A stretch of 53,137 nt of DNA from a virus. Taxonomy: Duplodnaviria; Caudoviricetes. Below, in pieces: positions 3,995 through 53,022 of this stretch. The notes under the pieces are model-generated. The model was given only the letters and a program-made list of their open reading frames with translations, searched no databases and was not told the origin of the DNA. Made by a program: the position numbers and the translations under genes. The DNA is taken from IMG/VR virus record IMGVR_UViG_3300011267_000017, positions 1 to 53,137 of that record. One strand, written 5' to 3'. Each line of letters starts with the position of its first letter. The first letter of the stretch is position 1.

Positions 3995-5563
3995 ATGGCA
4001 TATTGGAAACAAAGTTCAAAAAATACCCGTCAATTAGATAGTTTCGGATTGGCGACTAATAATTCTGGAGGAAGAAATTCATCTCCTACAGAATTTTATG
4101 AAATGGAACTCGGTGTAGTTTTGGATATAGTTTTAGATGAAAAACATCCTCTTTATCAAGTTAAAGAAAAATTACATTCTAAAATTGATGTCGATAGATG
4201 GCCAGCAGATTTAGAAGATAAACCTGCATTAAATACTGATAAAGATTTATCATGGATTGGAAGAGCATTAGTTAGACCATTAATTTCAGAAAAACTGACA
4301 GATAAAGACCAACTTTTATGGGCATATCCTTTAGAAGGAAATTTATCTGAATATCCTCTCATTAATGAATTAGTTGTATTAGTTTCTTATAGAGATCAAT
4401 TGTATTATACTAAAAAAGTAAATTATCATAATTGGCCGAATAATAATCTTGATTTTGCAATTCAACAAGCTACATCAGGAAAACCTAATACAGAGTTGTT
4501 TTCTAATTCTACATTAACAGGTAATAAAGAGTCCAAGACAAATTACAAAGGCGATACTGGATTTAAAGGATATGCCGGAAAATATTTTGTTTCAAACAAT
4601 AAAATACGAACAATAAAACGATTTGAAGGAGACTTACTTATAGAAAGTAGATTTGGTCAAACAATTCATATGACTGCATATGACTCCAATCGTTCAAATG
4701 ATGTAGGAGACTCTCGATATAAAGATTACAAAGATAGTGGTAATCCCATGATTATCATTCGCAATCGTCAACGACCATTAGTAAAATCGGGTCAAAAGCT
4801 AATTCCTCATAAAAAATTGCCACCTATTATTGGGACCGAACAAGAGAAAAATACAGGTGGGTATTTAGAAGAAAATATTAACCACGATGGTTCTACTATT
4901 GCAATTACTTCGGGTCAAACAATAAGTCAGTATGTTACGACTTGTTATAAAAAGATGTTTGGAGATGGAGAAGAAACAGTAAAATTTCAAGGTTCTACAT
5001 CTTTTAAAACTCCAATTTTGAATGGAGATCAAATTGTTATCAATTCAGATAGATTAGTTTTATCATCTCGTTACGGAGAAACTCTTCATTATTCAAAAAA
5101 ACGTTATGGTATTGTAACTGATAATGAATATACCGTAGATGCCCATCAACAAATTGTTTTAACTACAAATACAAAAACTGTAATTAATTCTCCTGCAATT
5201 TATCTTGGTGAATATGATATGACAAATGAACCAGTTTTATTAGGTCAAACTACTATAAATTGGTTGTACGAATTATGTAATTGGTTATTAACCCATACTC
5301 ATTGGCATAAACATTCTCATACTGACGCCGGAAAAGAGTCTCCATCTACAACACAATTACCAGTTGAAGTTCAACAATTAATTGCATTAAGAGATAAACT
5401 TCATACTTTACTTAGTCGAAGAGTATTTGTTACGGGTGGTGGCCTTGCTCCGGGCCAAAACGGGGGCAATATAATTGACGGTACTCCGCCCGTTAAAATA
5501 AGTACTGGTAATGGAGATGGTGTTCCCGGGGGATGGAAAGGTACTAACTTCAGACCATCATAA
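3995..5563 (+). CDS. Baseplate central spike/hub protein (gp5/gpV-like)
   Basis: OB-fold-like N-terminus (YPLINELVVLV), GDLLIESRFGQTI, beta-repeat region, His apex HTHWHKHSH; located just upstream of gp25/gp6. Confidence 0.65.
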   Translation: MAYWKQSSKNTRQLDSFGLATNNSGGRNSSPTEFYEMELGVVLDIVLDEKHPLYQVKEKLHSKIDVDRWPADLEDKPALNTDKDLSWIGRALVRPLISEKLTDKDQLLWAYPLEGNLSEYPLINELVVLVSYRDQLYYTKKVNYHNWPNNNLDFAIQQATSGKPNTELFSNSTLTGNKESKTNYKGDTGFKGYAGKYFVSNNKIRTIKRFEGDLLIESRFGQTIHMTAYDSNRSNDVGDSRYKDYKDSGNPMIIIRNRQRPLVKSGQKLIPHKKLPPIIGTEQEKNTGGYLEENINHDGSTIAITSGQTISQYVTTCYKKMFGDGEETVKFQGSTSFKTPILNGDQIVINSDRLVLSSRYGETLHYSKKRYGIVTDNEYTVDAHQQIVLTTNTKTVINSPAIYLGEYDMTNEPVLLGQTTINWLYELCNWLLTHTHWHKHSHTDAGKESPSTTQLPVEVQQLIALRDKLHTLLSRRVFVTGGGLAPGQNGGNIIDGTPPVKISTGNGDGVPGGWKGTNFRPS

Positions 5564-5577
5564 GGATATTTATACCT

Positions 5578-6195
5578 ATGAAAAAATCAGAAATTACACA
5601 ACTCACACAGATAATTGAGCATTTGGTTGCACGTGAAGTGCGTAAACAACTTCCAAAAATTATTTCAGAAGTATTCCAAAATGGCTTAAATAAGCCAGTT
5701 TTAACAGAAACTCAATCTGTTAAAAATATAGAAGAACCCATCAAGGAAAATGTAGAACAAAATGAATTAAAAACATCATTAAAAGAATTGTTTTCAGGAG
5801 TTACTCCGTCAATTCCATCCAATGACGGAGCATCTATTCAAAAAGTTCAAAAACAATATACTAAAAATCCTATTTTAAATCAAATTTTGAATGAAACCTC
5901 TGGAGATTTAAAGCAACGTGAACGAATGCATGGAGGAATGCCTATTGCTGCGGCTGGAATGTCAATGCCTTCTCCTATGGAATTGGCAGCAACAACAAAC
6001 ATTCCAATTTCAGCTCCGCCAGTATTATCTGAAGGTCAGGAAAGTCGTCATGCTCCAATGTCTGCATTACCAGAAGGAATTTCAGCATTAGATGTTGCTA
6101 AGGCAGGAATGGTTCCTGAAGCAGTAACTTCAGTTCTTACGAATTTTGATCGTATGAAAAAAATTCTTGAGCAATCTAAATCGAAACGACACTAA
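5578..6195 (+). CDS. Hypothetical protein (possible head-associated protein)
   Basis: 205-aa ORF with TATTTATA 3 nt upstream; contains LTE/IKE/LNE motifs. Confidence 0.7.
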   Translation: MKKSEITQLTQIIEHLVAREVRKQLPKIISEVFQNGLNKPVLTETQSVKNIEEPIKENVEQNELKTSLKELFSGVTPSIPSNDGASIQKVQKQYTKNPILNQILNETSGDLKQRERMHGGMPIAAAGMSMPSPMELAATTNIPISAPPVLSEGQESRHAPMSALPEGISALDVAKAGMVPEAVTSVLTNFDRMKKILEQSKSKRH

Positions 6196-6614
6196 TGCCT
6201 ATAGTAAAAAATACTCCCATCGGTATAAATCTACCTATTCAAGGTGGAAAAAATGGATATTTTGATCAATCCACGGATACATTCACTGCATATAGAATGA
6301 ATATTATCAATCTCATCCGAACAAATCCGGGTGAACGAAGAATGAACCCTACGTTTGGATGCCGTTTATGGAATATCGTATTTGAACCCAATGATGATTT
6401 TATTCCACAAAAAATAGAAAAAATAATTAAAGAAGATGTAGCACGATGGATACCCGGAGTAAGTGTAGACTCAGTAAACGTTAAATATTTTGAAAATGAC
6501 CAAAGTACAGATTTACGAGATATTTATAAATTGTACATCACAGTTGCATTTACAATTAGTACAATAAATCAATCGGATGTAGTAGAGATTATCCTTGATA
6601 AGAACAAGGTCTAA
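6195..6614 (+). CDS. gp25: Baseplate wedge subunit, GPW/gp25 family
   Basis: NLIRTNPGERRMNPTFGCRLWNIVFEP motif; size and position fit. Confidence 0.9.
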   Translation: MPIVKNTPIGINLPIQGGKNGYFDQSTDTFTAYRMNIINLIRTNPGERRMNPTFGCRLWNIVFEPNDDFIPQKIEKIIKEDVARWIPGVSVDSVNVKYFENDQSTDLRDIYKLYITVAFTISTINQSDVVEIILDKNKV

Positions 6615-6616
6615 TT

Positions 6617-23924: not shown

Positions 23925-24233
23925 ATGCCAACTCCAAATCAAAGACCATCGTTAACGACTAATCTTGAAAGCCGATATGCAACTCAACGTGCAGGAGGAG
24001 CTTTTGAGGTTAAACAACGTTTAAAAGCTCCCGGTAAGTCACCACAAACGGGAGATAGAATGCCAATTAATGGCAATGAACGATTGTATTCGGAAGATGA
24101 TTTCGCTGTTAAGCAACAATTAGGGGTTACTGAACTTTTAGATGCTAGAGAAGCAAATACCTCTAGTGCTCCAAAATCCAAGGAAATGTCGCTATATATT
24201 CGCGGATTTAACAATCAAAAGTATAAAGGTTAA
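23925..24233 (+). CDS. Hypothetical protein
   Basis: 102-aa ORF with TATTTATA at 23899-23906. Confidence 0.7.
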   Translation: MPTPNQRPSLTTNLESRYATQRAGGAFEVKQRLKAPGKSPQTGDRMPINGNERLYSEDDFAVKQQLGVTELLDAREANTSSAPKSKEMSLYIRGFNNQKYKG

Positions 24234-24256: not shown

Positions 24257-24296
24257 ACATCCTTTCATTGTATATGTAACTACAATGAAAGGATGT
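24257..24296 (+). promoter_or_regulatory. Perfect 16-bp hairpin with a late motif (TATATGTA) at its loop and the resolvase initiation region in its 3' arm
   Basis: ACATCCTTTCATTGTA-TATGTAAC-TACAATGAAAGGATGT. Confidence 0.8.
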
Positions 24297-24802
24297 TTTC
24301 ATTTATGACTCTTGGTTTTGATGCAAGTACAACAACATGTGGGTGGGCGTTTTATAATGGAGTTGATATTTTAGATGCTGGATTTATTGACATTTCCAAG
24401 TATGATACAAATAAACAAAAGACAATTTGTGTTATAACAGCGATACAATCTAATCCTCATTTAGTAGAAACTACTAAAATTAATCTTGAAGCCGCCTTAT
24501 CAGGGTTTTTCCGAGGACGGACGAGTCAACAGACCATCATCAAGCTGGCACGGTTTAATGCAGTCTTTGAATATATCATCTCCGAAACATTAAAAATACC
24601 CGTTAATCTTGTTAGTGTAACAACAGCTCGCAAAAATGTTTTTGGAAAATGTAGAGTAAAGGGAACTGACCCAAAAGAATATGTAAAGCAACAATTATCA
24701 TTGAAATTGGACTTGACAAAATTTGATAAGTTGAATAAGATTGGTAATTGGGACCAACGAAATGCAGATATGTATGACGCAATGGTCATGGCGATGGCTT
24801 AA
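24293..24802 (+). CDS. RuvC-like Holliday junction resolvase
   Basis: LGFDASTTTCGWA, INLE, ARKNVFG..K, ADMYDA: RNase H-fold acidic residues. Start may be 24305. Confidence 0.8.
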   Translation: MFSFMTLGFDASTTTCGWAFYNGVDILDAGFIDISKYDTNKQKTICVITAIQSNPHLVETTKINLEAALSGFFRGRTSQQTIIKLARFNAVFEYIISETLKIPVNLVSVTTARKNVFGKCRVKGTDPKEYVKQQLSLKLDLTKFDKLNKIGNWDQRNADMYDAMVMAMA

Positions 24803-25332: not shown

Positions 25333-26292
25333 ATGCTCGTACAGTCAGAACTCATAGGTATCTTCAATGAACTGTTAAATCAGACTGCAAAACTCCGAAA
25401 AGGAGGCATTCAAGCTACGTACCATTGTCCTTTTTGTGCCGACAAAAATTTAGCTACTCAAAAGTTGGAAATTGCTCTTTCCGGACCAAAAGTTGGAAAT
25501 TATCACTGTTGGAGATGTAACACTAAAGGACGTAGTTTTGGAAGTTTATTAAAACGACTTAATGCATCCCAACATTATAGAGATGCTATTTTTAAATTAA
25601 CAGGGGATATTAGAGCAATACGACAAAAACGAACAAATGACACTCATGAGTTTGTAAAATTGCCGGAAGAATTTCTACCACTTTCAAAACCAAATTCATC
25701 TGTAGAATATAAGAATGCATTAGCCTACTTAAAACGTAGAGGCATATTAAGAGAAGATATTTTGCGATACAATATTGGATATTGTGAGGAAGGGGACTAT
25801 GCATTTCATATCGTTATTCCTTCATATGACGCAGATGGAAAATTAAATTTTTATGTCGGTCGTAGATATTATGATACAGAAGGAGCAATACCACATAAAA
25901 AAGCAGAATTTCCGATGGATGAAATAATTGGATTTGAGAGCTTTATTAACTATGATTATCCAATTAGTTTATGTGAAGGTGCATTCGATGCAATTGCTAT
26001 TCGGAATAATGCAGTTCCTCTTTTTGGAAAATTTCCGTCAAAAAGACTAAGACAAAACTTAATAATTCATGGAGTTAAACGAGTTAATATGGTATTGGAT
26101 GATGATGCATTAAAAGATGCTATTAAAAATTATGAGTTATTAGTTAAAGATGTTCCCGGAATTACGGTTCATTTAGTAAAATTAAGTGGAAAAGACCCAT
26201 CAAAATTAGGATTTAAAAAGACTCATAAACTTATCCGCGAAGCTCCTGAATTTACTGAAACAGATTTATTTAGATACAAGTTACAAATATGA
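25333..26292 (+). CDS. DNA primase (Zn finger + TOPRIM)
   Basis: CPFC...HCWRC zinc finger, YLKRRGI, CEGAFDAIAI, LDDDA, KDP. Confidence 0.9.
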   Translation: MLVQSELIGIFNELLNQTAKLRKGGIQATYHCPFCADKNLATQKLEIALSGPKVGNYHCWRCNTKGRSFGSLLKRLNASQHYRDAIFKLTGDIRAIRQKRTNDTHEFVKLPEEFLPLSKPNSSVEYKNALAYLKRRGILREDILRYNIGYCEEGDYAFHIVIPSYDADGKLNFYVGRRYYDTEGAIPHKKAEFPMDEIIGFESFINYDYPISLCEGAFDAIAIRNNAVPLFGKFPSKRLRQNLIIHGVKRVNMVLDDDALKDAIKNYELLVKDVPGITVHLVKLSGKDPSKLGFKKTHKLIREAPEFTETDLFRYKLQI

Positions 26293-26606
26293 GTTATGTA
26301 ATTTCATGGTTGATTGTATCAGTAATGTTTTTTGCAATTGGAGAATATTTCTCCAAATCATGGGCGTTACAGCCTACAATTGAAAAAGCAATTGTATTGG
26401 TAATTATGTATGTTTTAGGTACCGTTGCATGGCTACCAGCTATATATCGAGGACAAATTATTTCAATTGTGGGTACAATTTGGTCCGTCATGTCATTATT
26501 AACTACATTGTTTGTTGGCATTGTAATATTTCATGAAACATTAACATTAAACCAATTGATAGGAATGATAATGGCATTCCTATCAATTATTTTATTAAGC
26601 ATATGA
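26289..26606 (+). CDS. SMR/DMT-family 4-TM small membrane transporter
   Basis: 105 aa, four hydrophobic helices, Glu in TM1 (FAIGEYFSK), GIVIFHETLT..QLIG motif. Confidence 0.7.
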   Translation: MSYVISWLIVSVMFFAIGEYFSKSWALQPTIEKAIVLVIMYVLGTVAWLPAIYRGQIISIVGTIWSVMSLLTTLFVGIVIFHETLTLNQLIGMIMAFLSIILLSI

Positions 26607-29991: not shown

Positions 29992-32263
29992 AAACCAATT
30001 ACTTTCAAGTTTCGGTAAAAAGGGGGTAGATTTAGGGCTGGATACAATGCTGGTTGATATTGAAGATACCAGTTATTTATCTAAATATTTTGCAATTGCC
30101 GAATTTAATCCAGTTTTTACTGGCGGTAAAAATCCTGTAGCCTTTAATGGAACAAATCTTCTCAAAGAGGGGTCGGAAATTAAGGTTGAATGCATTGACT
30201 CCAATGGTAATTCTTTGTATATTGAACGACCAAAAAGTACCACTCAATTTACTGATGTTGCTAAATTCATTGTTTCCGTTCATGTTTATAATGAAACTTA
30301 TAATGGTCCTGCAAAATTCATTCTTATAGGAACAACCACAAAGGGAGAAATTGTTAGATGGAAATCAGATATTACAATCGATAAAACAGTTCAAAATTCA
30401 TCTAAAGTAAGGTTCTTTAATAAACCAACCCTAGAAGTTAGACCTCTTTTATATCCTGTAGTAGATACTAATATTGGTTCTTCGTTAACTTATCAATATT
30501 CATTTACAGGTTCTTTATCTGCATATGCAGTTGATCCAAAACGAGACACCTCTCGTAAAACAATTAATCCTAAAAAAACTGATATAGATTATAGAGTAAT
30601 TCTTAATGTAAACGATATAGACTCAGGACCACAATTATATCCAACCAAGTCGTTTAATACGCAAATGGAAGGGCAACCATTTTTTATAACAACTAAGAAT
30701 GTTCAATTTCCTTTTTCATATATTGATAGGCAAACATTTACCACTGGATCTTTTAAAGTAAAAAAAGTTATAGATAGTAAGACATTACAACTTAGTGATG
30801 CATTTTTTTATCCTTATAATCAAAATCAAATAGTTTCTAATATTAATTTTGGTACGTTTACAGCTTCTTATAAATGGGTAGCATATAATACTGCCTCAGA
30901 CTCGTATCAAAAATATGTTCCTCTTTCAGGGTCTCCTATTTTTATTAAACAATCATATGCAGAAATTGTTTATAGAAATTTAAAAACATTTTCTGGATTT
31001 GTAGCAAGACACAAATTATATAGAAAAAGCTTGGTGTATCCGGGAGATTTTCAATTGATTTCAGATGAACCATTGGGAGCATCAGAATTATTGGTTGATC
31101 CAATTACATCTAATAAAACATATAATCAACTAGGGATGTTTTATAATCAAGCTCATATTAACAAATATTGGTATGCTTCTTCTGGATCTATAAGATTATC
31201 AATGTCTCATTCAGTAACTCCAATGATTAATGCAATGAAAATTGCATCTCCAAATGGAACTTGGGCAGATGGAGAAACCTATGTAATTGTTAAAAACTCT
31301 TCCGAAGGAATTGTAAATAATGAAATTTATTATGCTTATGAAAGTTCATCTGTAAACAATTTAACGGGTTCCTCATATAATTCTAATTTTGTAAATTTAA
31401 AAGCTGGTTCATTATATGTTTTATCTACAAATGTTATCATAGAAAAGCCAAAAAATGCTACCAATTCCAAAGTATCATTTTATTTCACAAGTTCTATAGC
31501 GTCTATTACTAAAGAAAAAGATTACATAAGTCCATTTGGATTAAAAATCGGAGAAATATCTACTAAAGAAGAAACAACATTTAAGACATTTAAAGAAAAA
31601 CAAATGTTATTTTTTACGCCATCCGATGATTATTATGGAACATTAGTAATTGTACCTACCAATTGTAATGTTACCCTATCCGATTTATCTATAAAAGTTT
31701 ATGGGGATTATGGATTTTCTCCAGACATATTGTTTTCTAAAGTACCCTTTAGTATTAATGTTCCAAACGAAGGATTTATTATAAAGGCAGAATTGTTTGA
31801 TGTCAATTCTACATTAGTTTATTCAGACCTTCAAACCATTCAATCATTTGATGTTAATGGTGAAAGCTTATTTGTATATATTCCAAACTCAAATATAGAT
31901 CCTACAAAAGTTCAGTTTGTATCTGGAAGCTTGACTATTTCTCAAAGTTTATTTCTACCAAATTTGACATCTTGTCCTTCTGTAGATACTAGATTGATAG
32001 CTTGGAGGGTGCCTACACATTCTCCTCCCAGAAATACTGAGGGAGGACTATGTTACACTAATGTTTCACAATTAGAAATAGATGATACTGCGGGAGGAAC
32101 ATCTATTGTTGGAGATTATATTAAATTAGCGACTGTAGCATTTTCTGGTTCAGGACTAGTAGAAAGTATAGCTACTGCACTTTCTATAAAATATGATGGA
32201 AGTACCAATAAAGGAAGAAAGATAATTATTAACAATTCTGGGTCAAAGACAACATATCCATAA
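29987..32263 (+). CDS. Putative virion structural protein
   Basis: 758 aa, beta-rich, with TGS/SGS motifs and a late motif upstream. Confidence 0.65.
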   Translation: MANQLLSSFGKKGVDLGLDTMLVDIEDTSYLSKYFAIAEFNPVFTGGKNPVAFNGTNLLKEGSEIKVECIDSNGNSLYIERPKSTTQFTDVAKFIVSVHVYNETYNGPAKFILIGTTTKGEIVRWKSDITIDKTVQNSSKVRFFNKPTLEVRPLLYPVVDTNIGSSLTYQYSFTGSLSAYAVDPKRDTSRKTINPKKTDIDYRVILNVNDIDSGPQLYPTKSFNTQMEGQPFFITTKNVQFPFSYIDRQTFTTGSFKVKKVIDSKTLQLSDAFFYPYNQNQIVSNINFGTFTASYKWVAYNTASDSYQKYVPLSGSPIFIKQSYAEIVYRNLKTFSGFVARHKLYRKSLVYPGDFQLISDEPLGASELLVDPITSNKTYNQLGMFYNQAHINKYWYASSGSIRLSMSHSVTPMINAMKIASPNGTWADGETYVIVKNSSEGIVNNEIYYAYESSSVNNLTGSSYNSNFVNLKAGSLYVLSTNVIIEKPKNATNSKVSFYFTSSIASITKEKDYISPFGLKIGEISTKEETTFKTFKEKQMLFFTPSDDYYGTLVIVPTNCNVTLSDLSIKVYGDYGFSPDILFSKVPFSINVPNEGFIIKAELFDVNSTLVYSDLQTIQSFDVNGESLFVYIPNSNIDPTKVQFVSGSLTISQSLFLPNLTSCPSVDTRLIAWRVPTHSPPRNTEGGLCYTNVSQLEIDDTAGGTSIVGDYIKLATVAFSGSGLVESIATALSIKYDGSTNKGRKIIINNSGSKTTYP

Positions 32264-32318
32264 TCTTTCCAATTTTTGCTTATATGTACACATGTACGGA
32301 AAGGTTTACACTTAAGTT

Positions 32319-32984
32319 ATGAAACGAGCTTCTGGAAAAAGTAACATTGCAATAGTAAAAGATTATTTAGATGGAGTTAGACCATTTACGCAAATTTCTA
32401 TGCATATTGATGAGAATAAAAAGCATAGAAAAGAAGGTGAAAAATGGAAAGATGTTAATGGTATTGAGTGGGAAAGAAAAAAAGGTAAAAATATACGATT
32501 AACAAAAACACAAGGGGATATTATACGAGAAGCTATTGGAAATACCTTAAATTGTAAAAAATGTGGGCTTCAATATAAATGGGGAAATAGATACGATACT
32601 AAGTTTCTTCGTAAAACTGGAGTTTGTTATGAATGTATTGTAGAATATGAAACTAAACTCAGAATACTTGGATTATATGAAATTTATGAAAGGTATCATC
32701 TCGCATCTCGGGAACTCGGAGAATTAAAAGAAATGAGAGAGAAATTCAAAGAAACCATAGAATATTTTAATAGAACCGATGGGGATATTGTAAAATTTGC
32801 AGAAACAGAATACGATGAAAACATTGTGTGGAAAAATACAAATAAGGATAAAATTGTATCAGATGCTATTGCAGACTTAGAAAAAATTGAAAAATTAATA
32901 GCTACCGGGGAAGAATTATTGCCTAAGTTTAAACAAGAATACTTAGACGGAGTTCAAAAATACAATTTAGAATTTTATGTCTGA
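32319..32984 (+). CDS. Hypothetical Zn-binding protein upstream of terminase
   Basis: CKKC...CYEC; overlaps the terminase start; TATATGTA at 32281-32288. Confidence 0.7.
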   Translation: MKRASGKSNIAIVKDYLDGVRPFTQISMHIDENKKHRKEGEKWKDVNGIEWERKKGKNIRLTKTQGDIIREAIGNTLNCKKCGLQYKWGNRYDTKFLRKTGVCYECIVEYETKLRILGLYEIYERYHLASRELGELKEMREKFKETIEYFNRTDGDIVKFAETEYDENIVWKNTNKDKIVSDAIADLEKIEKLIATGEELLPKFKQEYLDGVQKYNLEFYV

Positions 32985-34629
32985 TAAACCTCAATTGTCA
33001 TTTCAAGACATTATTAAAGAAGAGTACAAGAAGTGTGCAGCATCTCCAGTGTACTTCATGAAACATTATGTAAAAATTCAACATCCTATTAGAGGTACAA
33101 TTTTCTTTAACTTGTATCAATTTCAGGAACAAACTCTTCAAGATTTTGCAGACTATAAGTTCAATATTATTTTGAAATCTCGTCAGATGGGTATTTCAAC
33201 CTTAGTAGCCGCATATTCCTTATGGACAATGATATTCAATAAAGATAAGAATATTTTATTGATTTCATTAAAACAAGAAGACGCAAAGGAAGTTATTACT
33301 AAAGTTAGATTTGCTAATGAAAATCTTCCTACATGGTTAAAAGTGAAATGTCTTGAAGATAATCGTCTTTCTCTTAAATTAGCAAATGGGTCAAGTATTA
33401 AAGCAGCATCTACCACTAAAAAATCCGGAGTTGGTCAAGCACTTTCATTGTTAATTATTGACGAAGCTGGTCTTATTGAAGAAGCAGAAGAACTTTGGAC
33501 TTCTGCTCAACCTACATTGTCTACTGGTGGTAATGCAATTATTCTTTCTACTCCTCGTGGTGTTGGTAATTGGTTTCATAAAATGTGGGTGGGAGCAGAA
33601 GAAGGTGGAAATCCCGAAAAGAAAATAGGAAAAAATGGGTTTCATCCAATAAAATTACCATGGTATCTTCATCCTGATCGTGATCAAACTTGGCGAGAAG
33701 TTGAAGGTGCAAAACAAGGCAATCCTAAAAAAGCTGCACAGGAATTTGATTGTGATTTTATTGCAACTGGTGATAACGTAATAGATCTTGGAGTTGTTAC
33801 ATGGTATAAAAAATCAAAACAACGTGATCCAGTAGATATTCGAGGAATAGACAAAGGTCTTTGGCAATGGCAATTTCCTGATTATAGCCATGCTTATTTG
33901 GTTTGTGCGGACGTTGCACGAGGAGATGGATCTGATTTTTCTGCATGTCATGTATTGGATATTTCATTAGAAACTCCAACACAAGTTGCTGAGTACAAAG
34001 GCAATCTAGGAACAAAAGACTATGGAAATTTTTTAGTAGCTCTTTCAACTGAGTATAATAATGCATTATTAATTGTAGAACGTGAAAACGTGGGATGGGC
34101 TACACTTCAAGCTATTATTGATCGTGAATATGGTAATCTTTTCTATTCATCCGCAGATTTGAAATATGTAGATGTTCAACGACAGTTATCTAATCATTAT
34201 AATACTGAAGATAAGAAATTAGTTCCCGGATTTAGCACTAATATTAAAACCAGACCATTGGTAATTGCTCATCTTGAACAATTTCTTAGGGAAAAGGCTA
34301 TAGATATATTTTCTACAAGAACATTGGCGGAAATGGAAACTTTTATTTGGAAAAATGGAAAAGCTCAAGCAATGGAAGGATATAATGATGATTTAATTAT
34401 GTCTTTAGGAATTGGATTATGGGTTAGAGATACTGCTTTAAGATTAAGACAAGAAGGTATTGATTTAACAAAAGCAGCATTGGGACAAATTGGTAGGAAT
34501 AAAATAGATACAGCTCCTGTTTACAAATCTACACAAAATCAAATTGGCAAAAAAGCATGGGAAATGCCCACAGGCCGAACTGGGTATGGAAATCAAACAT
34601 CTGAGGATATACGATGGTTATTGGGTTAA
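32977..34629 (+). CDS. gp17: Terminase large subunit (T4 gp17-like)
   Basis: LYQFQ, KSRQMGIST Walker A, IIDEAG, STPRG, ADVARGDGSDFS, GYNDDLIMS. Confidence 0.95.
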   Translation: MSDKPQLSFQDIIKEEYKKCAASPVYFMKHYVKIQHPIRGTIFFNLYQFQEQTLQDFADYKFNIILKSRQMGISTLVAAYSLWTMIFNKDKNILLISLKQEDAKEVITKVRFANENLPTWLKVKCLEDNRLSLKLANGSSIKAASTTKKSGVGQALSLLIIDEAGLIEEAEELWTSAQPTLSTGGNAIILSTPRGVGNWFHKMWVGAEEGGNPEKKIGKNGFHPIKLPWYLHPDRDQTWREVEGAKQGNPKKAAQEFDCDFIATGDNVIDLGVVTWYKKSKQRDPVDIRGIDKGLWQWQFPDYSHAYLVCADVARGDGSDFSACHVLDISLETPTQVAEYKGNLGTKDYGNFLVALSTEYNNALLIVERENVGWATLQAIIDREYGNLFYSSADLKYVDVQRQLSNHYNTEDKKLVPGFSTNIKTRPLVIAHLEQFLREKAIDIFSTRTLAEMETFIWKNGKAQAMEGYNDDLIMSLGIGLWVRDTALRLRQEGIDLTKAALGQIGRNKIDTAPVYKSTQNQIGKKAWEMPTGRTGYGNQTSEDIRWLLG

Positions 34630-34694
34630 AATCCGATATTTATAATGGGGATTTATCCCAAAACACATACACATAACGTAAAATATAGAATAAT

Positions 34695-41115: not shown

Positions 41116-41158
41116 TAACTTTACTTCATCTTGAATTTCGCATATCATTCTTGACCGT

Positions 41159-42103
41159 ATGCGAGATTTTCTATTCACTTACGACAACATTTGTCTTCGA
41201 CCAAAATATTCTGAGTTGCCATCTCGCTCAGAAGCCGATACATCTACAACGTTTTTAGGCAAAACGTTTAAGCTTCCCATTATCCCTGCAAATATGCAGG
41301 ACGTTATTTCATGGGAACTTGCTGCGGCATTATCACAGAACAAATATTGTTATGTCATGCACCGATTTGGTAATGCAAATAGCAATGTTCCTGCCTATAT
41401 TACAGCGTTCTCAGAACTTCTTAGTGTAAGTATTGGCGTCAATGACCCATCCAAGCACGAATTGGATGCTTTTGCAAACGAAGGACGTATCCCAGATTTA
41501 ATCACAATTGACGTTGCTCATGGTCATCATTCTAAAGTCAAAGAAATGATTAACTTTGTACATCAGAACTTCCCGAACAAATCGAAGATTATTGCCGGTA
41601 ATGTTGCTACCGCAGATGGATATAAATACCTGTGTGACATGGGAGCGGACGCAGTGAAGGTCGGGATTGGAGGAGGTTCTATTTGCAGCACTCGCTATAA
41701 GACCGGGTTTCATCTTCCAACAGCGTATTCTGTTTGGGAATGTGCGAATAAAGGAGATCGAGACATTCCTATCATTGCGGATGGTGGAGCAACCCATTTT
41801 GGAGATGTTGCCAAAGCTTTAGTATTGGGCGCTGACATGGTTATGTCAGGACGCTGGTTCGCAGAATGTATTGACTCGCCTGCACGTATTCACGATGGAA
41901 AGAAAATCTATCGGGGGTCTACTTCATTTGAGTCCAAAGGACACAACAATCATATTGAAGGTTATACCCTTCAAATTACGGGTGGATGTAAATATTCCGA
42001 ACGGTTGATTGAACTTCAACAGGCTCTTCAAAGTAGCATATCATATGCTGGTGGAACTGACTTAAAATGTTTCCGTAATGTTGAATGGGAAATATTGTCA
42101 TAA
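41159..42103 (+). CDS. GMP reductase / IMP dehydrogenase family (no CBS domains)
   Basis: [27 protein letters not shown] (catalytic Cys), [25 protein letters not shown]. GuaC vs GuaB not resolved. Confidence 0.9.
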
Positions 42104-42945: not shown

Positions 42946-42951
42946 TTGCGA

Positions 42952-42979
42952 TTGACATTTAAGCAAAAATCGCTATAGT
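42952..42979 (+). promoter_or_regulatory. Sigma70-type promoter TTGACA-16-TATAGT, predicted leaderless
   Basis: The -10 ends 6 nt before ATG 42986. Confidence 0.65.
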
Positions 42980-42985
42980 CATCGC

Positions 42986-44149
42986 ATGAACCTTGAATGG
43001 CTTAATCAAAATACGATCTATGTCACTCTCCATGGCTCTCAAGCTTATGGACTTGCCAATGAATTTAGCGACGTGGACGTAAAGGGCATTTGCATCCCTC
43101 CTCGGGAAGTTGAGTATAACCTGTATCATCGCTTTGAACAGGCGGAAAATCCTGTAGGATTGGAAGCACAGCTTTCCCATCTAAAGAACCCAAAGAACCC
43201 GAAGTTTGAAAGCTCGGTTTATTCTTTGAGAAAGTTCTTTTTGCTCGCCGCAGAAGTCAATCCAAACATTATCGAATTGTTGTGGACGGACCCGAAGGAC
43301 CATTTTGTGTTCAAGAGTCCGATGGAAAAGATCATCGCCAATCGCAATCTATTTCTATCCAACAAGGCTCGTTATACCTTTGCAGGATATGCTTGTGCTC
43401 AAGCAAAGAAGATTGAGCGGCATCGAAAGTGGATTGTGTTGGGCGAAGTTAAGCCTCCATCTAGGGAGGAATTCGGTCTTCCATCTACTCCCCCAAAGGG
43501 TGTTGAAGAAGTCTTTGGCTTTATAAAGAGCAAGGTTGAACAGTGGAACCTTAACCAATTTCCTCTGGAAGAAATGCAACGTAGTGAGTTGAAGGATACC
43601 ATCTGGGAACTTCTGACAACTCTTACGGAACGTGAAATTTCCGTGGCAAATTGGCCAGATCGGTATGCTGAAGGAGTCATCTTTAAGATGCAGAAGGAAT
43701 TCAATCTTAAGGATGAAGTCGTCGCCTTCATCAATGCTGAACGGGCATATGCTAAGGCAAAGCAAGTTTACGACAGTTGGGTATCTTGGAAGAAGGAACG
43801 AAATCCTGCTCGTCGTGAGTTAGAAGAGAAGTCTGGTTATGACACAAAGCACGCCAGCCATCTTGTTCGTCTCATGCGTATGGGATATGAAATCCTTACG
43901 ACCGGAGAAGTCATTGTCAAGCGTCCAGACCGTGAAGAACTTCTTGCCATTAAGAATGGTGCTTGGAGTTATGAAAAGGTCATGGAATACAAGGATGAAA
44001 TTGAAAGCAAGCTTGAAGCTGAATATGCTCGCCAAAAACAACTTGTTGCCGAAGGTAAGCCAACGCCACTTCCTCGGGAAGTTAATAAGGAAAAGCTGAA
44101 CGCATTGTATCATCAGCTTTATGAAGAGTATTGGAACAATAATGCTTAA
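42986..44149 (+). CDS. DNA polymerase beta superfamily nucleotidyltransferase (Nuc-transf/RlaP-like)
   Basis: GSQAYGLA...SDVDVKG, NPNIIELL, YDTKHASHLVRL, ELLAIKNG. Confidence 0.85.
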   Translation: MNLEWLNQNTIYVTLHGSQAYGLANEFSDVDVKGICIPPREVEYNLYHRFEQAENPVGLEAQLSHLKNPKNPKFESSVYSLRKFFLLAAEVNPNIIELLWTDPKDHFVFKSPMEKIIANRNLFLSNKARYTFAGYACAQAKKIERHRKWIVLGEVKPPSREEFGLPSTPPKGVEEVFGFIKSKVEQWNLNQFPLEEMQRSELKDTIWELLTTLTEREISVANWPDRYAEGVIFKMQKEFNLKDEVVAFINAERAYAKAKQVYDSWVSWKKERNPARRELEEKSGYDTKHASHLVRLMRMGYEILTTGEVIVKRPDREELLAIKNGAWSYEKVMEYKDEIESKLEAEYARQKQLVAEGKPTPLPREVNKEKLNALYHQLYEEYWNNNA

Positions 44150-45240: not shown

Positions 45241-45269
45241 TTGACAAGGTACCATAGATTTGTTATGTT
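45241..45269 (+). promoter_or_regulatory. Sigma70-type promoter TTGACA-17-(TG)TATGTT
   Basis: Consensus -35, extended -10, 9 nt before ATG 45279. Confidence 0.6.
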
Positions 45270-45278
45270 ACTATAACA

Positions 45279-45779
45279 ATGCAGACATTTTTAGTTTACC
45301 CAAACTATCTTCAATCCATGCGATGCCTTGATAAATACCGATTGGGAAATCAGGTATGGCGAGAGGGATTAACTCTTCTTCGGGGAGGATGGCCAAATCA
45401 CCCAGCGTCTCGTATGTGGAAAGGTCATGAATACCACCTTGGATTATATCTGTTGGATGGACTTAAAGTATTGGAAGAACGAGGAAAAGTTTATCCAGAA
45501 GTTAGACATAAAATAGAAATCGAAATGATAAAATTTTCAAATACTGGTGCTCCACATTGGCTTGGCGATGAAGCCTTTCATGCATCTCATCGCAGCAATC
45601 TTTTGAGAAAAGTAACAGAAGCAATCCAAAAAGCAAAAGAAGCCATTAAAAGAGATAATCCACGTAGACATCATTATATGAAAGTAGCTGATTATGTTAA
45701 GTCGTGGTATTCTCAATTTGAATGGACTGAAATTGATAATTTGCCATATGTTTGGCCAACATCCACAAAAGCTTTATGA
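45279..45779 (+). CDS. Pyrimidine-dimer DNA glycosylase-like protein (DenV / MSMEG_6728-like)
   Basis: MQTFL.YP...S..LD..RLG.Q..E, GWPNHPA..MW.G, P.WLG....H.SHRSNLLRK, LPYVWP. Confidence 0.75.
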   Translation: MQTFLVYPNYLQSMRCLDKYRLGNQVWREGLTLLRGGWPNHPASRMWKGHEYHLGLYLLDGLKVLEERGKVYPEVRHKIEIEMIKFSNTGAPHWLGDEAFHASHRSNLLRKVTEAIQKAKEAIKRDNPRRHHYMKVADYVKSWYSQFEWTEIDNLPYVWPTSTKAL

Positions 45780-46093: not shown

Positions 46094-46806
46094 TTGCAAA
46101 GAACATTGTTATTCATGGAGACAGCCGAACGGAATTGAAAAATCTTCCGAATGGTTGTATTGATTTATGCGTTACGTCGCCTCCGTATAAAGATTGTGAT
46201 GGATATTCAGATGATCTTATTAAAGATGTATTTGCTGAAATCTATCGTCTTCAACGAGACAACACACTTTTGTTTGTAAACTTTGGACATTTAGCTGAAG
46301 ACAAATTTCGACCATATCGTGTGTGTTCTATAATCATGGATATTGGTTATAAACTTAACGACACTATTGTTTGGGTCAAAAATCATTACAAACCAATTCA
46401 AGGCAAACGGCGAGTAAACAATTTGACAGAATTTATTTTTCTTCTTTACAAAGGTAACATGCCAGAATTGGACAGACTGGCATTAGGCATTCAGTACAAA
46501 GACAAGTCCAATGCAAAACGGTTTAGTGGCGGTAGAGATTTGAAATGTGCAGGAAATGTCTGGTACATCAATTATCCCACTATCAACAGTTCTGATGAAA
46601 AACTCCACAATGACAGATTTCCTGTAGAGTTGCCGGAGAGATGCATAAAACTTTGTGGTTATCCTATGGAAACAGTTTTAGATCCATTTTTTGGATCAGG
46701 TACAACTGGATTGGCAGCTAAGAACTTAGGAAAGTCCTATATCGGAGTGGAGAAATCCGATAGCCACTACACAGTTGCTATTCAACGATTAAACAGTGGA
46801 AGTTGA
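46090..46806 (+). CDS. DNA methyltransferase, beta class (SPPY, probable N4-cytosine)
   Basis: VTSPPY motif IV N-terminal, H..RFP.ELPERCI, VLDPFFGSGTT motif I C-terminal. Confidence 0.9.
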   Translation: MIAKNIVIHGDSRTELKNLPNGCIDLCVTSPPYKDCDGYSDDLIKDVFAEIYRLQRDNTLLFVNFGHLAEDKFRPYRVCSIIMDIGYKLNDTIVWVKNHYKPIQGKRRVNNLTEFIFLLYKGNMPELDRLALGIQYKDKSNAKRFSGGRDLKCAGNVWYINYPTINSSDEKLHNDRFPVELPERCIKLCGYPMETVLDPFFGSGTTGLAAKNLGKSYIGVEKSDSHYTVAIQRLNSGS

Positions 46807-47190
46807 TTTAGATTTTCTATTTCTTTTATCTTTTTCTAATTGTAATACCGTGAGATACGCAGCAATTTTTAATTCTTCTGGAGAGAACGTTTTTAAATCT
46901 TGATTAGGATTAGTAGAAGATAATTGGGGTATTGGTCGGCCCATTTGTTTAAACATATCTTCCTTATGTCTATTACATATTCCATGTGATACTCCTACAT
47001 TTGGAAGTCCCAATTCTTTTTCACAAAATGAACAAGAATGAAACAAAAGTTGTTTAATAGCAGCCTGACGTTCTTTTGGAAGAGCACGAAATTGCTGTAC
47101 GAGAATTTTCTTTTGTTCCGGAGATAATGTCGGAACTTCTCGTTTATGTAGAAGATGCCCGAATTTTTTTTGTAGTTCTTCGGGAGACAT
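46789..47190 (-). CDS. Zn-binding hypothetical protein (CSFC...SHGIC..H); may be reached by -1 frameshift from the upstream gene
   Basis: Own ATG at 47190 is possible; the frame stays open back through the A9 run at 47263-47271. Confidence 0.6.
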   Translation of the reverse strand: MSPEELQKKFGHLLHKREVPTLSPEQKKILVQQFRALPKERQAAIKQLLFHSCSFCEKELGLPNVGVSHGICNRHKEDMFKQMGRPIPQLSSTNPNQDLKTFSPEELKIAAYLTVLQLEKDKRNRKSKSTSTV

Positions 47191-47210
47191 TTGTGCCAGA
47201 GCACCCTCGT

Positions 47211-47684
47211 TTACTGAGGAGGTTCTGTCAAGCCCTTTTTCGGAGAAGTTTCTGGGGTTGGCTTTTTTTTTAGATCGTAGTAACGACCGAGAACATGACC
47301 GATGTCTTGATAAGCAACTCCTAATTGTTGCATTTTTCCATAACACTCTTTTGCAATTTTCCCGTATTCCATAACTCTCTTTTTAAGTTCTTTCATGTCA
47401 CGTTTGACAATATCTTGCTGAAACCAATCTCCACATTCATTTAATGCATATGCTTCTGCAAGTTCACAAAGTTCTGTCATTGCACGTGCGGAATTCACAA
47501 TAGCTTCTTCATTACGGATGGCTTGACCATAATTTTCAAACATAGATGCCATTTCCATAAGCTTCTTTTTTTGTTCGGCAGAAAGTTTTGGGGTTTCATC
47601 TTTTCCAAATCCCTTATCTGGAATTTTTCCAAGATTTTCCACAATGCGTTTAAGAGTGAATTTCGTTGTTTTAGGAGTACTCAT
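47211..47684 (-). CDS. Helical head-cluster hypothetical protein
   Basis: TATTTATA on the minus strand (47688-47695) 3 nt before the ATG. Confidence 0.75.
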   Translation of the reverse strand: MSTPKTTKFTLKRIVENLGKIPDKGFGKDETPKLSAEQKKKLMEMASMFENYGQAIRNEEAIVNSARAMTELCELAEAYALNECGDWFQQDIVKRDMKELKKRVMEYGKIAKECYGKMQQLGVAYQDIGHVLGRYYDLKKKPTPETSPKKGLTEPPQ

Positions 47685-47710
47685 AGCTATAAATATAGTT
47701 CAAAACTTTG

Positions 47711-48034
47711 TTATTTCAAGTTTTTGTCTATTTCGGGTTGAGCATAGTGATCAAAAAAATCAATTACATCATTAAAGGTTTTAAACCTTTTCTTTTCTTT
47801 ATCAGGTTCTTCTATAAAAAAGAAATCATGAGGTTTTCCATGTTCATCTGTATCTTTCTTTTTATAAATTGTAATTTTTGGATCTTTAGCTGTTATCATA
47901 TGATGATCATCTGCAAATTCAAATCCCATAGTTACTAAATGATCAACATCTGGCCAACGCCAATTATCAACATTGATAAGTCCGTCTTTATTCTCGTCAG
48001 AAATAGAATTTAATAGTTCGGTTAACTTTATCAT
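47711..48034 (-). CDS. Hypothetical protein
   Basis: Starts MIKLTELL; ATGA overlap with the upstream gene. Confidence 0.7.
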   Translation of the reverse strand: MIKLTELLNSISDENKDGLINVDNWRWPDVDHLVTMGFEFADDHHMITAKDPKITIYKKKDTDEHGKPHDFFFIEEPDKEKKRFKTFNDVIDFFDHYAQPEIDKNLK

Positions 48035-48648
48035 AGGTCTAATTTTATTAAAAAATCGGATAATACATTTGCTCCATCTACATCATTTATAAATGTAACT
48101 GACTTTGTAATACGTATTGGATCGTTAACCGTTAATTCATCTTCAGATGTTTCTTGTTCAGCCACATTACCTTCTGGTTCAGCTTCTTCATCTGCTCGTT
48201 CATGTTTTGCAAAAGCAGTCCAACAAAATTGTCCACCTTCTTTTAACTTTTTAATAACCGTAGTGTCATTTGTTCCAAAATCATCAGTAGTTTCATATTT
48301 TACAAAGTATTTGTCATGTTGAGTAGGCTTTGAATTTTTATAATTAATAATTGATTGTTGTTCTTTAGGAGTGAATTCAATCCCACGGTGTTGATTTACA
48401 TAACTATCAAAATCCGATTTTGTATCGAATGTTTTTGCAATAACATTTCTTTCTGTAGGTATTTCTTCAGAAACTAGATTATCAGGATTTGTAATATCTG
48501 TTTCTCCACCCGTATTCCCCGTATATTCTTCCTTTAATTTCTTCAAACCTATAAGCAATTTTCGTTTTTGTTCATCAGTTAATTGTTCCTTCATATTAAC
48601 AATATTTCGAAGGCGGGAGAGCTTGGCTTCTGTGAGCATATATTTCAT
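48031..48648 (-). CDS. Hypothetical protein
   Basis: Start reassigned to 48648 (MKYMLTE), 5 nt after a minus-strand TATTTATC at 48654-48661. Confidence 0.7.
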   Translation of the reverse strand: MKYMLTEAKLSRLRNIVNMKEQLTDEQKRKLLIGLKKLKEEYTGNTGGETDITNPDNLVSEEIPTERNVIAKTFDTKSDFDSYVNQHRGIEFTPKEQQSIINYKNSKPTQHDKYFVKYETTDDFGTNDTTVIKKLKEGGQFCWTAFAKHERADEEAEPEGNVAEQETSEDELTVNDPIRITKSVTFINDVDGANVLSDFLIKLDL

Positions 48649-48818
48649 CAATAGATAAATATCTACAAATATTTGATTTTTCGTTTTTTTGGACATACTT
48701 ATTATACAGAATGCCGCATCTCTATATGCTGCCCGCCGATCCTCCATTGGATCACTTGTTGAATAACCTTCATTGAAGTTTGAATAACTTCAGAAAAACC
48801 TAATAAGGAAATTAATTT

Positions 48819-51962: not shown

Positions 51963-51984
51963 TCTTAGATTTGGAAATAATCAC

Positions 51985-52011: not shown

Positions 52012-52025
52012 GTACAAATTTATTC

Positions 52026-52054
52026 TTGCTTTACAAGTCATAACTTGTTATGGT
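52026..52054 (+). promoter_or_regulatory. Sigma70-type promoter TTGCTT-17-(TG)TATGGT
   Basis: Extended -10, 8 nt before ATG 52063, inside an 8-bp hairpin. Confidence 0.55.
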
Positions 52055-52062
52055 AGTCAGTT

Positions 52063-52926
52063 ATGAAACCATATTGGATAATTGAAAATTTTGTTAAAGA
52101 ACCTTCATTTAAAGAACTTTCTGCCGCAGCAAAGGAATTAAATTATCCTTTCCTAGAAATTAACGGAGATTATTCTCCAACTTTACTACGAGAAACTTTA
52201 AAATTTCTGTATTTGTCAGAGGCTAAAGTTCCTGTATACGATAATCAATGTGTTATTGTTAATGGGTCCATTAAAATGTGTAAATTAATAGCAGAAGAAT
52301 TACAAATCGGATGCTATCCCATTGTATTCTCTACATTTAACAACTACAAATGTTCTGCGTATTATTCTCATTTTGGTGAATACTTGTTTAATGACAAATA
52401 TTGTTTAATGTCATTGAAAGAAATAGCTCGTCAAAAATATGATGTGTGGGGTCATTATGGTAAAGATGGTTTAATATTTATTCGTCCAGACTCAGGTGAA
52501 AAAACTTTTCAAGCAGGATTACTTGATATAATTGATTTAGCAACATTATGGGACTCCAATAAAGATGTCGAACATGAACTCATGTTGGTATCAACTCCAA
52601 AAAACATTTTATGGGAAGGCCGATTTATAGTGTCTCGAAGTAAAGGAATAATCGCATATTCCACATATCGTTTTCAAGGAAAGGTAACAATTATTCCAAG
52701 TGTTCCTGTTGAAACTGTTAAGTTTTGTGAAGAACTTTTAGAAAAAACTACATATACTCCAGATCCTGTGTTTTGTTTCGATATTTGTCAAGATAATGAT
52801 AAAAATTGTTGGCTTATGGAACTAACAAGTTTTTCAAGTGCAGGATTATATGCTACTAATAAAAAGAATATCATACAATCTGTATCTGAAATAGCCATTA
52901 ACGAGTGGAAGAAACAAGGCAGATAA
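52063..52926 (+). CDS. ATP-grasp protein (R2K/DUF4343-like)
   Basis: FIRPDSGEKTF, EGRFIV, FCFDI...LMELTSFSSAGLY. Confidence 0.75.
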   Translation: MKPYWIIENFVKEPSFKELSAAAKELNYPFLEINGDYSPTLLRETLKFLYLSEAKVPVYDNQCVIVNGSIKMCKLIAEELQIGCYPIVFSTFNNYKCSAYYSHFGEYLFNDKYCLMSLKEIARQKYDVWGHYGKDGLIFIRPDSGEKTFQAGLLDIIDLATLWDSNKDVEHELMLVSTPKNILWEGRFIVSRSKGIIAYSTYRFQGKVTIIPSVPVETVKFCEELLEKTTYTPDPVFCFDICQDNDKNCWLMELTSFSSAGLYATNKKNIIQSVSEIAINEWKKQGR

Positions 52927-53022
52927 TTATAAAATCATATATCTACAATAGATAAATAGTAATTGCCGAAGTTTAAGCTTCATACGTTCATATTTATATG
53001 TGACGTATGATCAAGTAAACAT

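Follow-up and report, generated by a model that had tools for sequence, protein, structure and literature searches.

Hairpins with internal promoter motifs at the start codons of a few module-border genes in an uncultured T4-like myophage

Introduction

How can a phage gene stay closed on RNA that runs into it from the module upstream and open once its own promoter fires? The question is raised by a virus of the Caudoviricetes, IMG/VR record IMGVR_UViG_3300011267_000017, of which the whole contig of 53,137 bases was analyzed here (the window). An initial annotation of this DNA had pointed to ten inverted repeats at gene starts, most of them with a promoter in the 5' arm or loop and the ATG in the 3' arm, and had read them as a genome-wide insulator against read-through that serves late and sigma70 promoters alike. 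Our results lean toward a narrower answer, in which a few genes at module borders have their start codon locked in a hairpin that contains their own promoter, by a mechanism of the T4 type. The hairpins concerned are not random, their pairing is kept through changes in both arms, promoter motifs lie inside them, and the device is gene-specific; what we infer is where transcription would start, that read-through RNA exists, and how translation would respond.

In phage T4, the genes e, soc, 49, and I-TevI, a precedent that the initial annotation had given correctly, are described in the sections of the literature drawn on here as having a hairpin that sequesters the initiation region and carries the late promoter in its 5' part (PMC3014915, PMC2988022). 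The same sections list the device for I-TevII, I-TevIII, segB, and Aeh1 mobE (PMC3014915, PMC2988022), and the T4 cases given there are all late genes carried on early or middle polycistronic RNA (PMC2988022). By analogy, the mechanism at the window sites beginning at positions 29958 and 41134 may be the one already known from T4 genes e, soc, 49, and I-TevI.

Results

All ten annotated inverted repeats are present in the window, and they differ widely in how far they stand out from chance. Each was folded as RNA against 200 dinucleotide shuffles; the z-scores are post hoc, since the coordinates had been picked by eye. Four hairpins were more stable than all 200 shuffles, with z from -4.3 to -7.7, namely those at 24257 (z -7.47), 29958 (z -7.73), 41134 (z -4.28), and 52980 (z -4.86). 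Four others were marginal, at 45260 (z -2.82; 3/200 shuffles as stable), 34621 (z -1.97; 8/200), 32262 (z -1.91; 5/200), and 42947 (z -1.90; 9/200), and the remaining two, at 52038 (z -1.07; 28/200) and 5559 (z -1.04; 30/200), were at chance. A stable hairpin with the start codon in its 3' arm is present at 29958 and 41134, where the probability that the AUG is paired, P(AUG paired), is 1.00, and is lacking at 5559, 32262, 42947, and 52038. Overall, the ten sites divide into two well-supported locks, a terminator-promoter hairpin, a decayed copy, and six that are weak or at chance.

An unbiased scan, in which the segment from -45 to +15 was folded around all 48 called starts of the + strand, separated starts behind a gap of at least 25 nt (gapped, n=22) from coupled ones (n=26). 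Strong structure (z < -3.5) was found at six of the 22 gapped starts (3606, 24293, 26664, 29987, 41159, and 44209) versus none of the 26 coupled starts (Fisher p = 0.006); the remaining 16 gapped starts were shuffle-like (mean z -0.37). The mean P(AUG paired), in turn, was equal in gapped and coupled starts (0.57 versus 0.58; shuffles, 0.46 and 0.47), and at 3606 and 44209 the strong structures are upstream terminator-type hairpins clear of the AUG. The comparison that the initial annotation had proposed as a check therefore supports a small group of strong gapped starts and not a general burial of start codons. A raw scan of the window for minimum free energy (MFE) was uninformative, as it returned 193 folding windows at or below -11 kcal/mol, mostly within GC-richer coding sequence.

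The hairpin at 29958-29991 (+ strand; arms 29958-29969 and 29980-29991) covers the start of a 758-residue gene at 29987-32263. Twelve of 13 arm positions pair, with one C/A mismatch; the late motif TATTTATA (29968-29975, + strand) occupies the last part of the 5' arm and extends into the loop, and the 3' arm contains ATG 29987. Of 22 orthologs, 16 have a hairpin that stops at the ATG (12 of 18, plus all four further ones from metagenome contigs), with energies from -11.9 to -27.4 kcal/mol and a 3' arm that ends at the ATG or within 3 nt of it. These hairpins follow two designs. In one, TATTTATA lies at the apex or in the 5' arm (the window, L037, L003, L054, and L140). The other has ATATGTAT at the base of the 5' arm, paired with ATACATAT(G), and a variable, G+C-rich stem inside (L134, L137, L138, L161, L166, and L170). 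Conservation here and at 41134 was judged by alignment-free swap tests, whose chimeras join the upstream part of one site to the downstream part of others and so retain motifs, ATG, and composition. Among 17 sequences of this family, native sites averaged -14.21 kcal/mol versus -8.7 to -9.5 kcal/mol for chimeras, a difference reached by 0/20000 permutations at four cut points. The 758-residue protein had no sequence match in PHROG, Pfam, or PDB, and only an unnamed viral cluster matched it (Atlas, 0.78).

The hairpin at 41134-41168 (+ strand; arms 41134-41144 and 41158-41168, 11 bp with one G-U pair) covers the start of gene 41159-42103, whose product belongs to the IMPDH/GMP-reductase family (Pfam PF00478, E 2e-55). 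Its sigma70-like promoter, on the + strand, has the -35 element TTTACT at 41120-41125 and the -10 element TATCAT at 41143-41148, the latter spanning the end of the 5' arm and the loop, and ATG 41159 lies within the 3' arm. Across 12 upstream regions (the window, L003, L004, L032, L037, L081-L085, L088, and L090), the native mean MFE was -15.12 kcal/mol versus -8.33 kcal/mol (sd 3.46) for chimeras, again with 0/20000 permutations (n=12). In all 12 the AUG pairs with bases just 5' of or within the -10 hexamer, at P >= 0.9 in ten of them. The arms differ by lineage (ATCTCG/CGAGAT, ATCTTG/CAAGAT, TTGTTG/CAACAA, TTTGG/CCAAA, and TTTTGGTG/CACCAAAA), so that pairing is retained with at least five different arm sequences and codons 2-3 change together with the promoter spacer. 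Several pair types occur at positions -4, -3, +5, and +7; at +5, for instance, CG is found five times, UA five times, and GC once. No consensus structure came out of RNAalifold on a MAFFT alignment of these upstream regions, since the register of the arms differs between lineages. Folding is stronger for the sense than for the antisense strand (-15.1 versus -13.0 kcal/mol; 9/12, p = 0.010), which points to a function at the RNA level, since G-U pairs count only on the sense strand. Compensatory change in relatives had been named in the initial annotation as a check, and at both 41134 and 29958 it was found as changes in both arms with pairing kept.

The promoter motifs inside the hairpins belong to two types. 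The + strand of the window has 14 copies of the motif TATTTATA and seven of its reverse complement; seven of the 14 begin 11-58 nt 5' of a called ATG, and an eighth (52991) precedes the ATGs at 53007 and 53023. In 80 related loci gathered via the portal protein (L001-L080), 220 copies lie on the gene strand versus 107 on the opposite strand. In 314 upstream gaps of the phage family, 7-mers of the motif are enriched 32- to 65-fold over coding sequence, and TATATGT, TATGTAT, and ATATGTA 15- to 24-fold (TATATGT 24-fold). The cultured phage immuto carries cTATTTATA, a motif of the same class, 5' of terminase, portal, and other late genes, and the variant TATATGTA stands in for TATTTATA at orthologous positions. 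Judged by position and conservation, TATTTATA and TATATGTA are presumably late-type promoters. Among the listings of a literature search, supplements aside, none was a paper on how genes of the immuto lineage are transcribed or on TATTTATA serving phages as a promoter.

Generic sigma70-like hexamer pairs are not enriched over shuffles (106 versus 113.7, 88 versus 103.6, and 38 versus 37.0), and the sigma70 assignments therefore rest on position and on conservation in orthologs. Such promoters lie directly 5' of ATGs 25333, 41159, 42421, 42986, 45279, and 52063, and four of these genes have orthologs with similarly placed promoters. Canonical promoters of the TTGACA-N16/17-TATAAT type precede auxiliary genes, though the nearest cultured relative infects a Flavobacterium.

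For family-wide tests, we collected from the window and the 80 loci the promoter-like sites followed by an ATG that opens an open reading frame (ORF) of at least 60 codons. This gave 160 late, 38 sigma70-like, and 12 TATATGTA sites, and 90, 26, and 10 after removal of near-duplicates. Late motifs end 3-5 nt 5' of the ATG in 30 of the 90 nonredundant sites (6.0 expected with even spacing), as at 1111-1125 and 5567-5580 of the window, and -10 hexamers end 6-8 nt 5' of it in 14 of 26 (6.5 expected); from this spacing, many mRNAs of the lineage may be leaderless. Other features recur in these upstream regions as well. A CA-repeat element, ACACATACACA, is conserved 20-30 nt 5' of the portal ATG (window 34645-34694; L001, L002, L004, L033, L034, and L037), often with a small hairpin between it and the late motif in the portal leaders of relatives, and ACACATA is enriched 24-fold in the upstream gaps of the family.

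What release from a lock would mean for the start codon was calculated with assumed start points, either the seventh base that follows the -10 hexamer or a position five bases past the late motif. Under these assumed starts, P(AUG paired) was 0.91 on read-through RNA versus 0.48 on the gene's own RNA (n=12, p = 0.0017), and 0.73 versus 0.42 in a second set (n=21, p = 0.0001); the predicted value for own RNA thus falls to the level of shuffles.

The insulator proposed for the whole genome did not hold up. Besides the equal P(AUG paired) of gapped and coupled starts, the late class of the family-wide set (n=90) showed no overall shift in duplex energy against chimeras (-5.85 versus -5.48 kcal/mol, p = 0.43) and none in pair probability (0.389 versus 0.349, p = 0.059), although its tail was heavier, with 9/90 sites at or below -10 kcal/mol versus 4.2% of chimeras. 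The sigma70 class was modestly more complementary by duplex energy (-8.45 versus -6.97 kcal/mol, p = 0.002) and by the free-energy difference ddG (p = 0.015), a result that depends on the measure, as pair probability gave 0.388 versus 0.364 (p = 0.38). A palindrome centered on the motif was rejected as a general feature of late promoters: at least three flanking pairs were seen in 9/142 sites (slid controls, 0.7-3.5%), and in 0/78 late-motif copies that do not stand in front of a gene.

Swap tests in other gene families were likewise negative. For the gene at 32319, native sites averaged -4.36 kcal/mol versus -5.00 kcal/mol for chimeras (p 0.96; 23 orthologs), and for the gene at 42986, -6.55 versus -6.8 to -7.2 kcal/mol (p 0.66-0.89; 12 nonredundant orthologs); the terminase (p 0.14), portal (0.996), g36853 (0.97), g39026 (0.52), and protease (0.63) families gave no excess either. 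The ortholog families behind the annotated hairpins at 32262, 34621, and 42947 thus show no native excess of structure, and two of them are less structured than chimeras; if anything, the start regions of the portal gene, g36853, and the gene at 32319 are kept open. Since the control families are negative and late promoters show no general shift, the lock is gene-specific, confined to a few genes at module borders. Of the claim that both promoter classes use the device, what stands is one site each, 29958 for the late and 41134 for the sigma70-like class; its generalization across the genome does not.

One of the four strong hairpins is better explained otherwise. At 24257-24272 and 24281-24296 (+ strand), a perfect 16-bp hairpin followed by TTTCATTT (24297-24304) stands between a tail-module gene (23925-24233) and a RuvC-like resolvase gene, with the motif TATATGTA (24271-24278, + strand) at the end of its 5' arm and in its loop. 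The start of the longest resolvase ORF, ATG 24293, lies in the 3' arm, where the initial annotation had put the ATG or ribosome-loading region. All 37 orthologs inspected (41 loci), however, begin M-x-L-G-(F/L)-D, aligned to window ATG 24305, so that 24293 is probably not the real start and the codon used lies 9 nt past the stem. The hairpin passes the terminator scan (16 pairs, tail TTTCATTTAT). At the equivalent place, L093 and L095 have canonical GC-rich terminators and then the motif, and L096, L100, and L101 have a long hairpin, whose loop carries a CTATGTAT- or CTATATAT-type motif, and a T-run, the ATG lying 20-37 nt beyond the stem. We prefer to read the site as a terminator-like hairpin whose loop holds the next promoter motif; in the window it may also occlude, to some extent, a start region only 9 nt away. 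For annotators, it is a warning that a first ATG within a stem need not be the start.

The hairpin near the end of the window is a perfect 8-bp one (arms 52980-52987 and 53003-53010, + strand) that encloses the late motif TATTTATA at 52991-52998. It had been described as leaving out the ATG; its 3' arm in fact contains ATG 53007 of a three-codon ORF, ATGATCAAGTAA, the remnant of a gene start that is intact in L143 and L147, where the same ATGATCAA opens a full gene. The next ORF, from 53023 (MRGKQIDLSGKKYGSLTV...), runs off the window and matches the gene that follows the motif in L142, which suggests a gene replacement or insertion at 53007-53137. Palindromes occur at the equivalent place in two of five relatives, one of 10 bp that includes the start ATG (L144) and one of 7 bp around the motif (L147). 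The site has the look of a partly decayed copy of the device, at a start that was later rearranged.

Six annotated repeats remain weak. CATAAGG..CCTATG at 5559-5580 (+ strand) surrounds a late motif at 5567-5574, which ends 3 nt 5' of ATG 5578; the repeat stays at chance level, with z 0.10 in the unbiased start scan. Likewise at chance level is the 8-bp repeat TCATAACT..AGTTATGA (52038-52066, + strand) around the -10 element of gene 52063; the upstream regions of five orthologs differ and hold no repeat of this type. The hairpin at 32262-32306 (+ strand), 5' of gene 32319-32984, is not supported (P(AUG paired) 0.13), and neither, as a lock, is that at 42947-42986 (+ strand) over the TTGACA-16-TATAGT promoter of an RlaP-like gene (P(AUG paired) 0.33). 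At 34621-34661 (+ strand), a hairpin around the late motif 34637-34644, 5' of the portal gene, is marginal and not conserved. A conserved enclosing hairpin was rejected there, being strong in only two of 14 nonredundant portal upstream regions (the window and L028), the others having hairpins 3' of the motif or none. The remaining site, an 8-bp A/U-rich hairpin at 45260-45279 (+ strand) that covers the -10 element (TATGTT) and extends to the A of ATG 45279, is a possible weak lock of the DenV-like gene. Its duplex energy of -9.9 kcal/mol is among the stronger ones of the sigma70 class, and the single ortholog found (L160) keeps the promoter and has no evident hairpin.

Two further strong hairpins had gone uncited. 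One at 26548-26594, with 20-nt arms of 90% complementarity, lies inside the end of ORF 26289-26606. Another, at 26631-26674 (z -4.83), covers ATG 26664, the putative start of the SbcCD-like ORF; a 46-codon ORF (26603-26743) overlaps this start region, and the starts of SbcCD-like orthologs could not be lined up with the hairpin. At 3561-3608, a perfect 14-bp, terminator-like hairpin is followed directly by TATTTATGTA and, 3 nt later, by ATG 3606, in the order terminator-like hairpin, promoter motif, start.

The source phage, whose genome the contig covers in part, is an uncultured, AT-rich, distantly T4-like myophage (G+C 29-45% along the contig), for which megablast found no near-identical phage record. 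Its T4-type genes encode a baseplate wedge, portal, prohead protease, large terminase, and major head protein; a primase, a fused SbcD/SbcC-like nuclease, and a RuvC-like resolvase are also present, as are the auxiliary IMPDH/GMP-reductase-family protein, DenV-like glycosylase, RlaP-like nucleotidyltransferase, and NADAR protein. By protein, the closest named phages (~50% identity) are Flavobacterium phage immuto and Microcystis phage Mel-JY01, and the head protein of Rhodothermus phage RM378 is 39% identical to that of the window. ORF 26664-29942 (1092 residues) joins SbcD-like (metallophosphatase) and SbcC-like (AAA_23/SMC_N) parts, functions that T4 keeps in two genes, 47 and 46. A Shine-Dalgarno sequence is almost never present 5' of the start codons, and the 26 coupled genes are evidently translated from internal AUGs without one. 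G+C climbs from ~32% to 38-45% across 48-52 kb, where scaffold-like and major head genes lie.

Two statements about the genome itself need correction. Almost all genes lie on the + strand, and the layout called one-stranded is broken by a minus-strand block at 46789-48747, three ORFs without a family match. Instead of the two clear terminators reported, terminator scans flagged + strand terminator-like hairpins at the gene ends 3561, 24257, 44166, and 51985, plus one (26554) within the end of ORF 26289-26606; at 24257-24304, 3561, 44166, and 51985, a G+C-containing stem is followed by a U-tract at the end of a unit. The same scans gave no such + strand structure for the hairpins at 29958, 41134, and 52980.

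Discussion

The locked genes would sit at places where a transcription module leads into its neighbor with no terminator between them. The strong sites coincide with changes of motif class. At 24257, tail genes give way to a resolvase/primase block; at 29958, the SbcCD-like gene to a late block; at 41134, head genes to a sigma70-type auxiliary block; and at 52980, a sigma70-type gene to a late motif. In the gaps at 29958 (44 nt) and 41134 (43 nt), no + strand terminator-like site was flagged besides the hairpins. The start codon and the first codons would make up the 3' arm, and the 5' arm would lie just 5' of, or over, the gene's own promoter element. RNA reading in from upstream would then contain both arms and bury the AUG. 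RNA from the gene's own promoter would begin either 0-6 nt 5' of the AUG, where the design uses TATTTATA or a sigma70 promoter, or within the 5' arm, where it uses TATATGTA; lacking the 5' arm, such RNA would leave the AUG free. At 24257, similarly, RNA started inside the terminator-like hairpin would be unable to form it.

If the motifs indicate temporal classes, as we assume, a late gene at 29958 would be placed behind the primase and SbcCD-like replication/recombination genes, and a sigma70-type GMP-reductase-like gene at 41134 behind late head genes, so that the gene order would fit the pattern of a late gene on earlier RNA at 29958 and not at 41134. We tentatively raise the possibility, which we hold to be less probable than the lock itself, that in this lineage, whose hosts would not use Shine-Dalgarno sequences, it works in both directions: the late gene at 29958 would be silent on early read-through, and the sigma70-driven metabolic gene at 41134 would be off on late read-through. 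The released form would then be a leaderless or near-leaderless mRNA, as about one-third of the late promoters of the family seem to give.

Several observations weigh against the start-codon lock. Hairpins at the AUG are absent from six of the 22 orthologs of the gene at 29987, and among the orthologs of the gene at 41159, L083 (0.73) and L085 (0.41) pair the AUG less probably. The strand asymmetry of the 29987 family is not significant over all 17 sequences (p = 0.15), and it becomes so only in 11 sequences that were chosen for their hairpin, with spans taken from the sense fold. Furthermore, CATATG is self-complementary, and since the ATATG of the promoter motif pairs for free with the ATATG of the start context, some TATATGTA-type cases are inflated. 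The class-wide tests add the missing shift of late promoters and the dependence of the sigma70 result on the measure. That sigma70-like promoters are early is a presumption, and relatives infect Flavobacterium, whose known promoters differ from the sigma70-like type. Finally, the window and several orthologs of the gene at 41159 have U-rich codons after the 3' arm (4-7 U in the next 7-8 nt), so that some termination at these hairpins is possible.

The last point leads to the strongest of the competing explanations, which we nevertheless consider unlikely: that the hairpins act on transcription, as intrinsic terminators or attenuators that stop the upstream polymerase and overlap the next promoter, an RNA started inside them lacking the 5' arm and escaping. 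It accounts well for 24257, with its 16 pairs and T-rich tail, its GC-rich or T-run-bearing counterparts in five relatives, and a real resolvase start outside the stem, and it draws on UUUUCUAUUC, which follows the hairpin at 41134, as well as on the U-rich stretch after the last paired base in several orthologs. It fits the other sites less well, as the hairpins at 29958 and 52980 have no + strand U-run and are not listed by the scans on that strand, and strong GC-rich stems in the 29987 family are followed by GGCACAAUUA-type sequence (L161 and L166). Among the 41159 orthologs, the few bases that were scored past the stem include only two U in L003 and L032 and three in L085 and L004. Moreover, in most orthologs the AUG itself lies in the stem in a conserved register, which a terminator does not need. 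Somewhat less probable still is the view that the pattern is mostly chance in AT-rich DNA, helped by the partial self-complementarity of the motifs (TAT..ATA and CATATG) and the ATG, with no dedicated device. Two of the ten annotated sites at chance and four marginal, six negative control families, the rarity of palindromes centered on the late motif, and the missing family-wide shift of late promoters, in pair probability as well, are what this view predicts. The four sites that beat all 200 shuffles stand against it, as does the joint change of arm sequences outside the motifs; and because chimeras retain the motifs and the ATG, and native sites are still 5-7 kcal/mol more stable in two families, the swap tests refute it for 29958 and 41134.

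Two further explanations keep the hairpins and change what they do. They might be 5'-terminal stabilizers or processing sites of the gene's own mRNA, whose start would lie 5' of the 5' arm, and set its half-life rather than its translation. The TATATGTA-type orthologs of the gene at 29987 (L134, L138, L161, L166, and L170) would indeed retain the inner GC-rich stem at the 5' end of their own RNA, and the portal leaders of relatives have a small hairpin just after the late motif. We find this improbable, given that the only promoter-like motifs lie inside the hairpins and none upstream, and that a hairpin burying the AUG of the sole translatable RNA would defeat expression. Alternatively, the repeats might work as DNA, either as a palindromic operator for a dimeric regulator or as a cruciform or single-strand hairpin that alters promoter opening; phage N4 has hairpin promoters of this kind. 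The repeats flank or overlap the -10 element or late motif, where an operator would sit, and the lack of a significant strand difference over all 17 sequences of the 29987 family suits a role in DNA. This explanation is, by a little, the least probable of the four. Arm sequences vary between relatives while the pairing stays, the reverse of what is expected of a protein site; thanks to G-U pairs, the sense strand of the 41159 family folds better than the antisense strand; and the 3' arm is tied to the AUG and not to a fixed distance from the promoter.

The start-codon lock, which we favor for 29958 and 41134, resembles the T4 examples in that long RNAs would bury the start, the putative promoter of the gene is located in the 5' arm or loop, so that its RNA would lack this arm, and only a few genes use the device; the window phage also shares head, portal, terminase, and baseplate genes of the T4 type. 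It differs in hiding no Shine-Dalgarno sequence, as the 3' arm consists of the AUG and first codons, in its late motif (TATTTATA or TATATGTA instead of T4's TATAAATA), and in own transcripts that are predicted to be leaderless or nearly so. One of its two robust cases, at 41134, is of the sigma70 type and lies behind late head genes, whereas the T4 cases, in the section cited, are all late (PMC2988022). The Holliday-junction resolvase gene at 24257 recalls T4 gene 49, which is on the hairpin list in the cited part of PMC3014915.

Comparison with other systems sharpens the picture. The early promoters of phage N4 are DNA hairpins with a conserved short stem and loop that are recognized by the virion RNA polymerase. 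They share with the window an inverted repeat at the promoter; in the window lineage, by contrast, the arms vary freely, the AUG fixes where the 3' arm lies, and G-U pairs speak for RNA. Like intrinsic terminators, 24257-24304 has a long stem, a T-rich tail, and a place at a gene end, where relatives have canonical terminators; unlike them, it has a promoter motif in its loop, and the hairpins at 29958 and 52980 contain an ATG and no U-tract. As in leaderless bacterial and phage mRNAs, the spacing of late motifs and -10 elements in the phage family fits a start at the AUG. In contrast to them, the 26 coupled genes use internal AUGs without a Shine-Dalgarno sequence, and a leaderless start is therefore not needed for translation here.

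The claim made here is a limited one, that a handful of module-border genes use the device. Even so, the T4 tie of translation to a gene's own promoter would extend well outside the T-even phages, to a lineage from the environment that has another late motif and no ribosome-binding sequences. Selection there preserves the pairing even as the two arms drift, the first codons of the protein among them. The sites at 29958 and 41134 are two concrete, testable cases with natural compensatory variants. If the lock does work in both directions, the identity of a transcript, and not only its presence, would be a general layer of timing in these phages.

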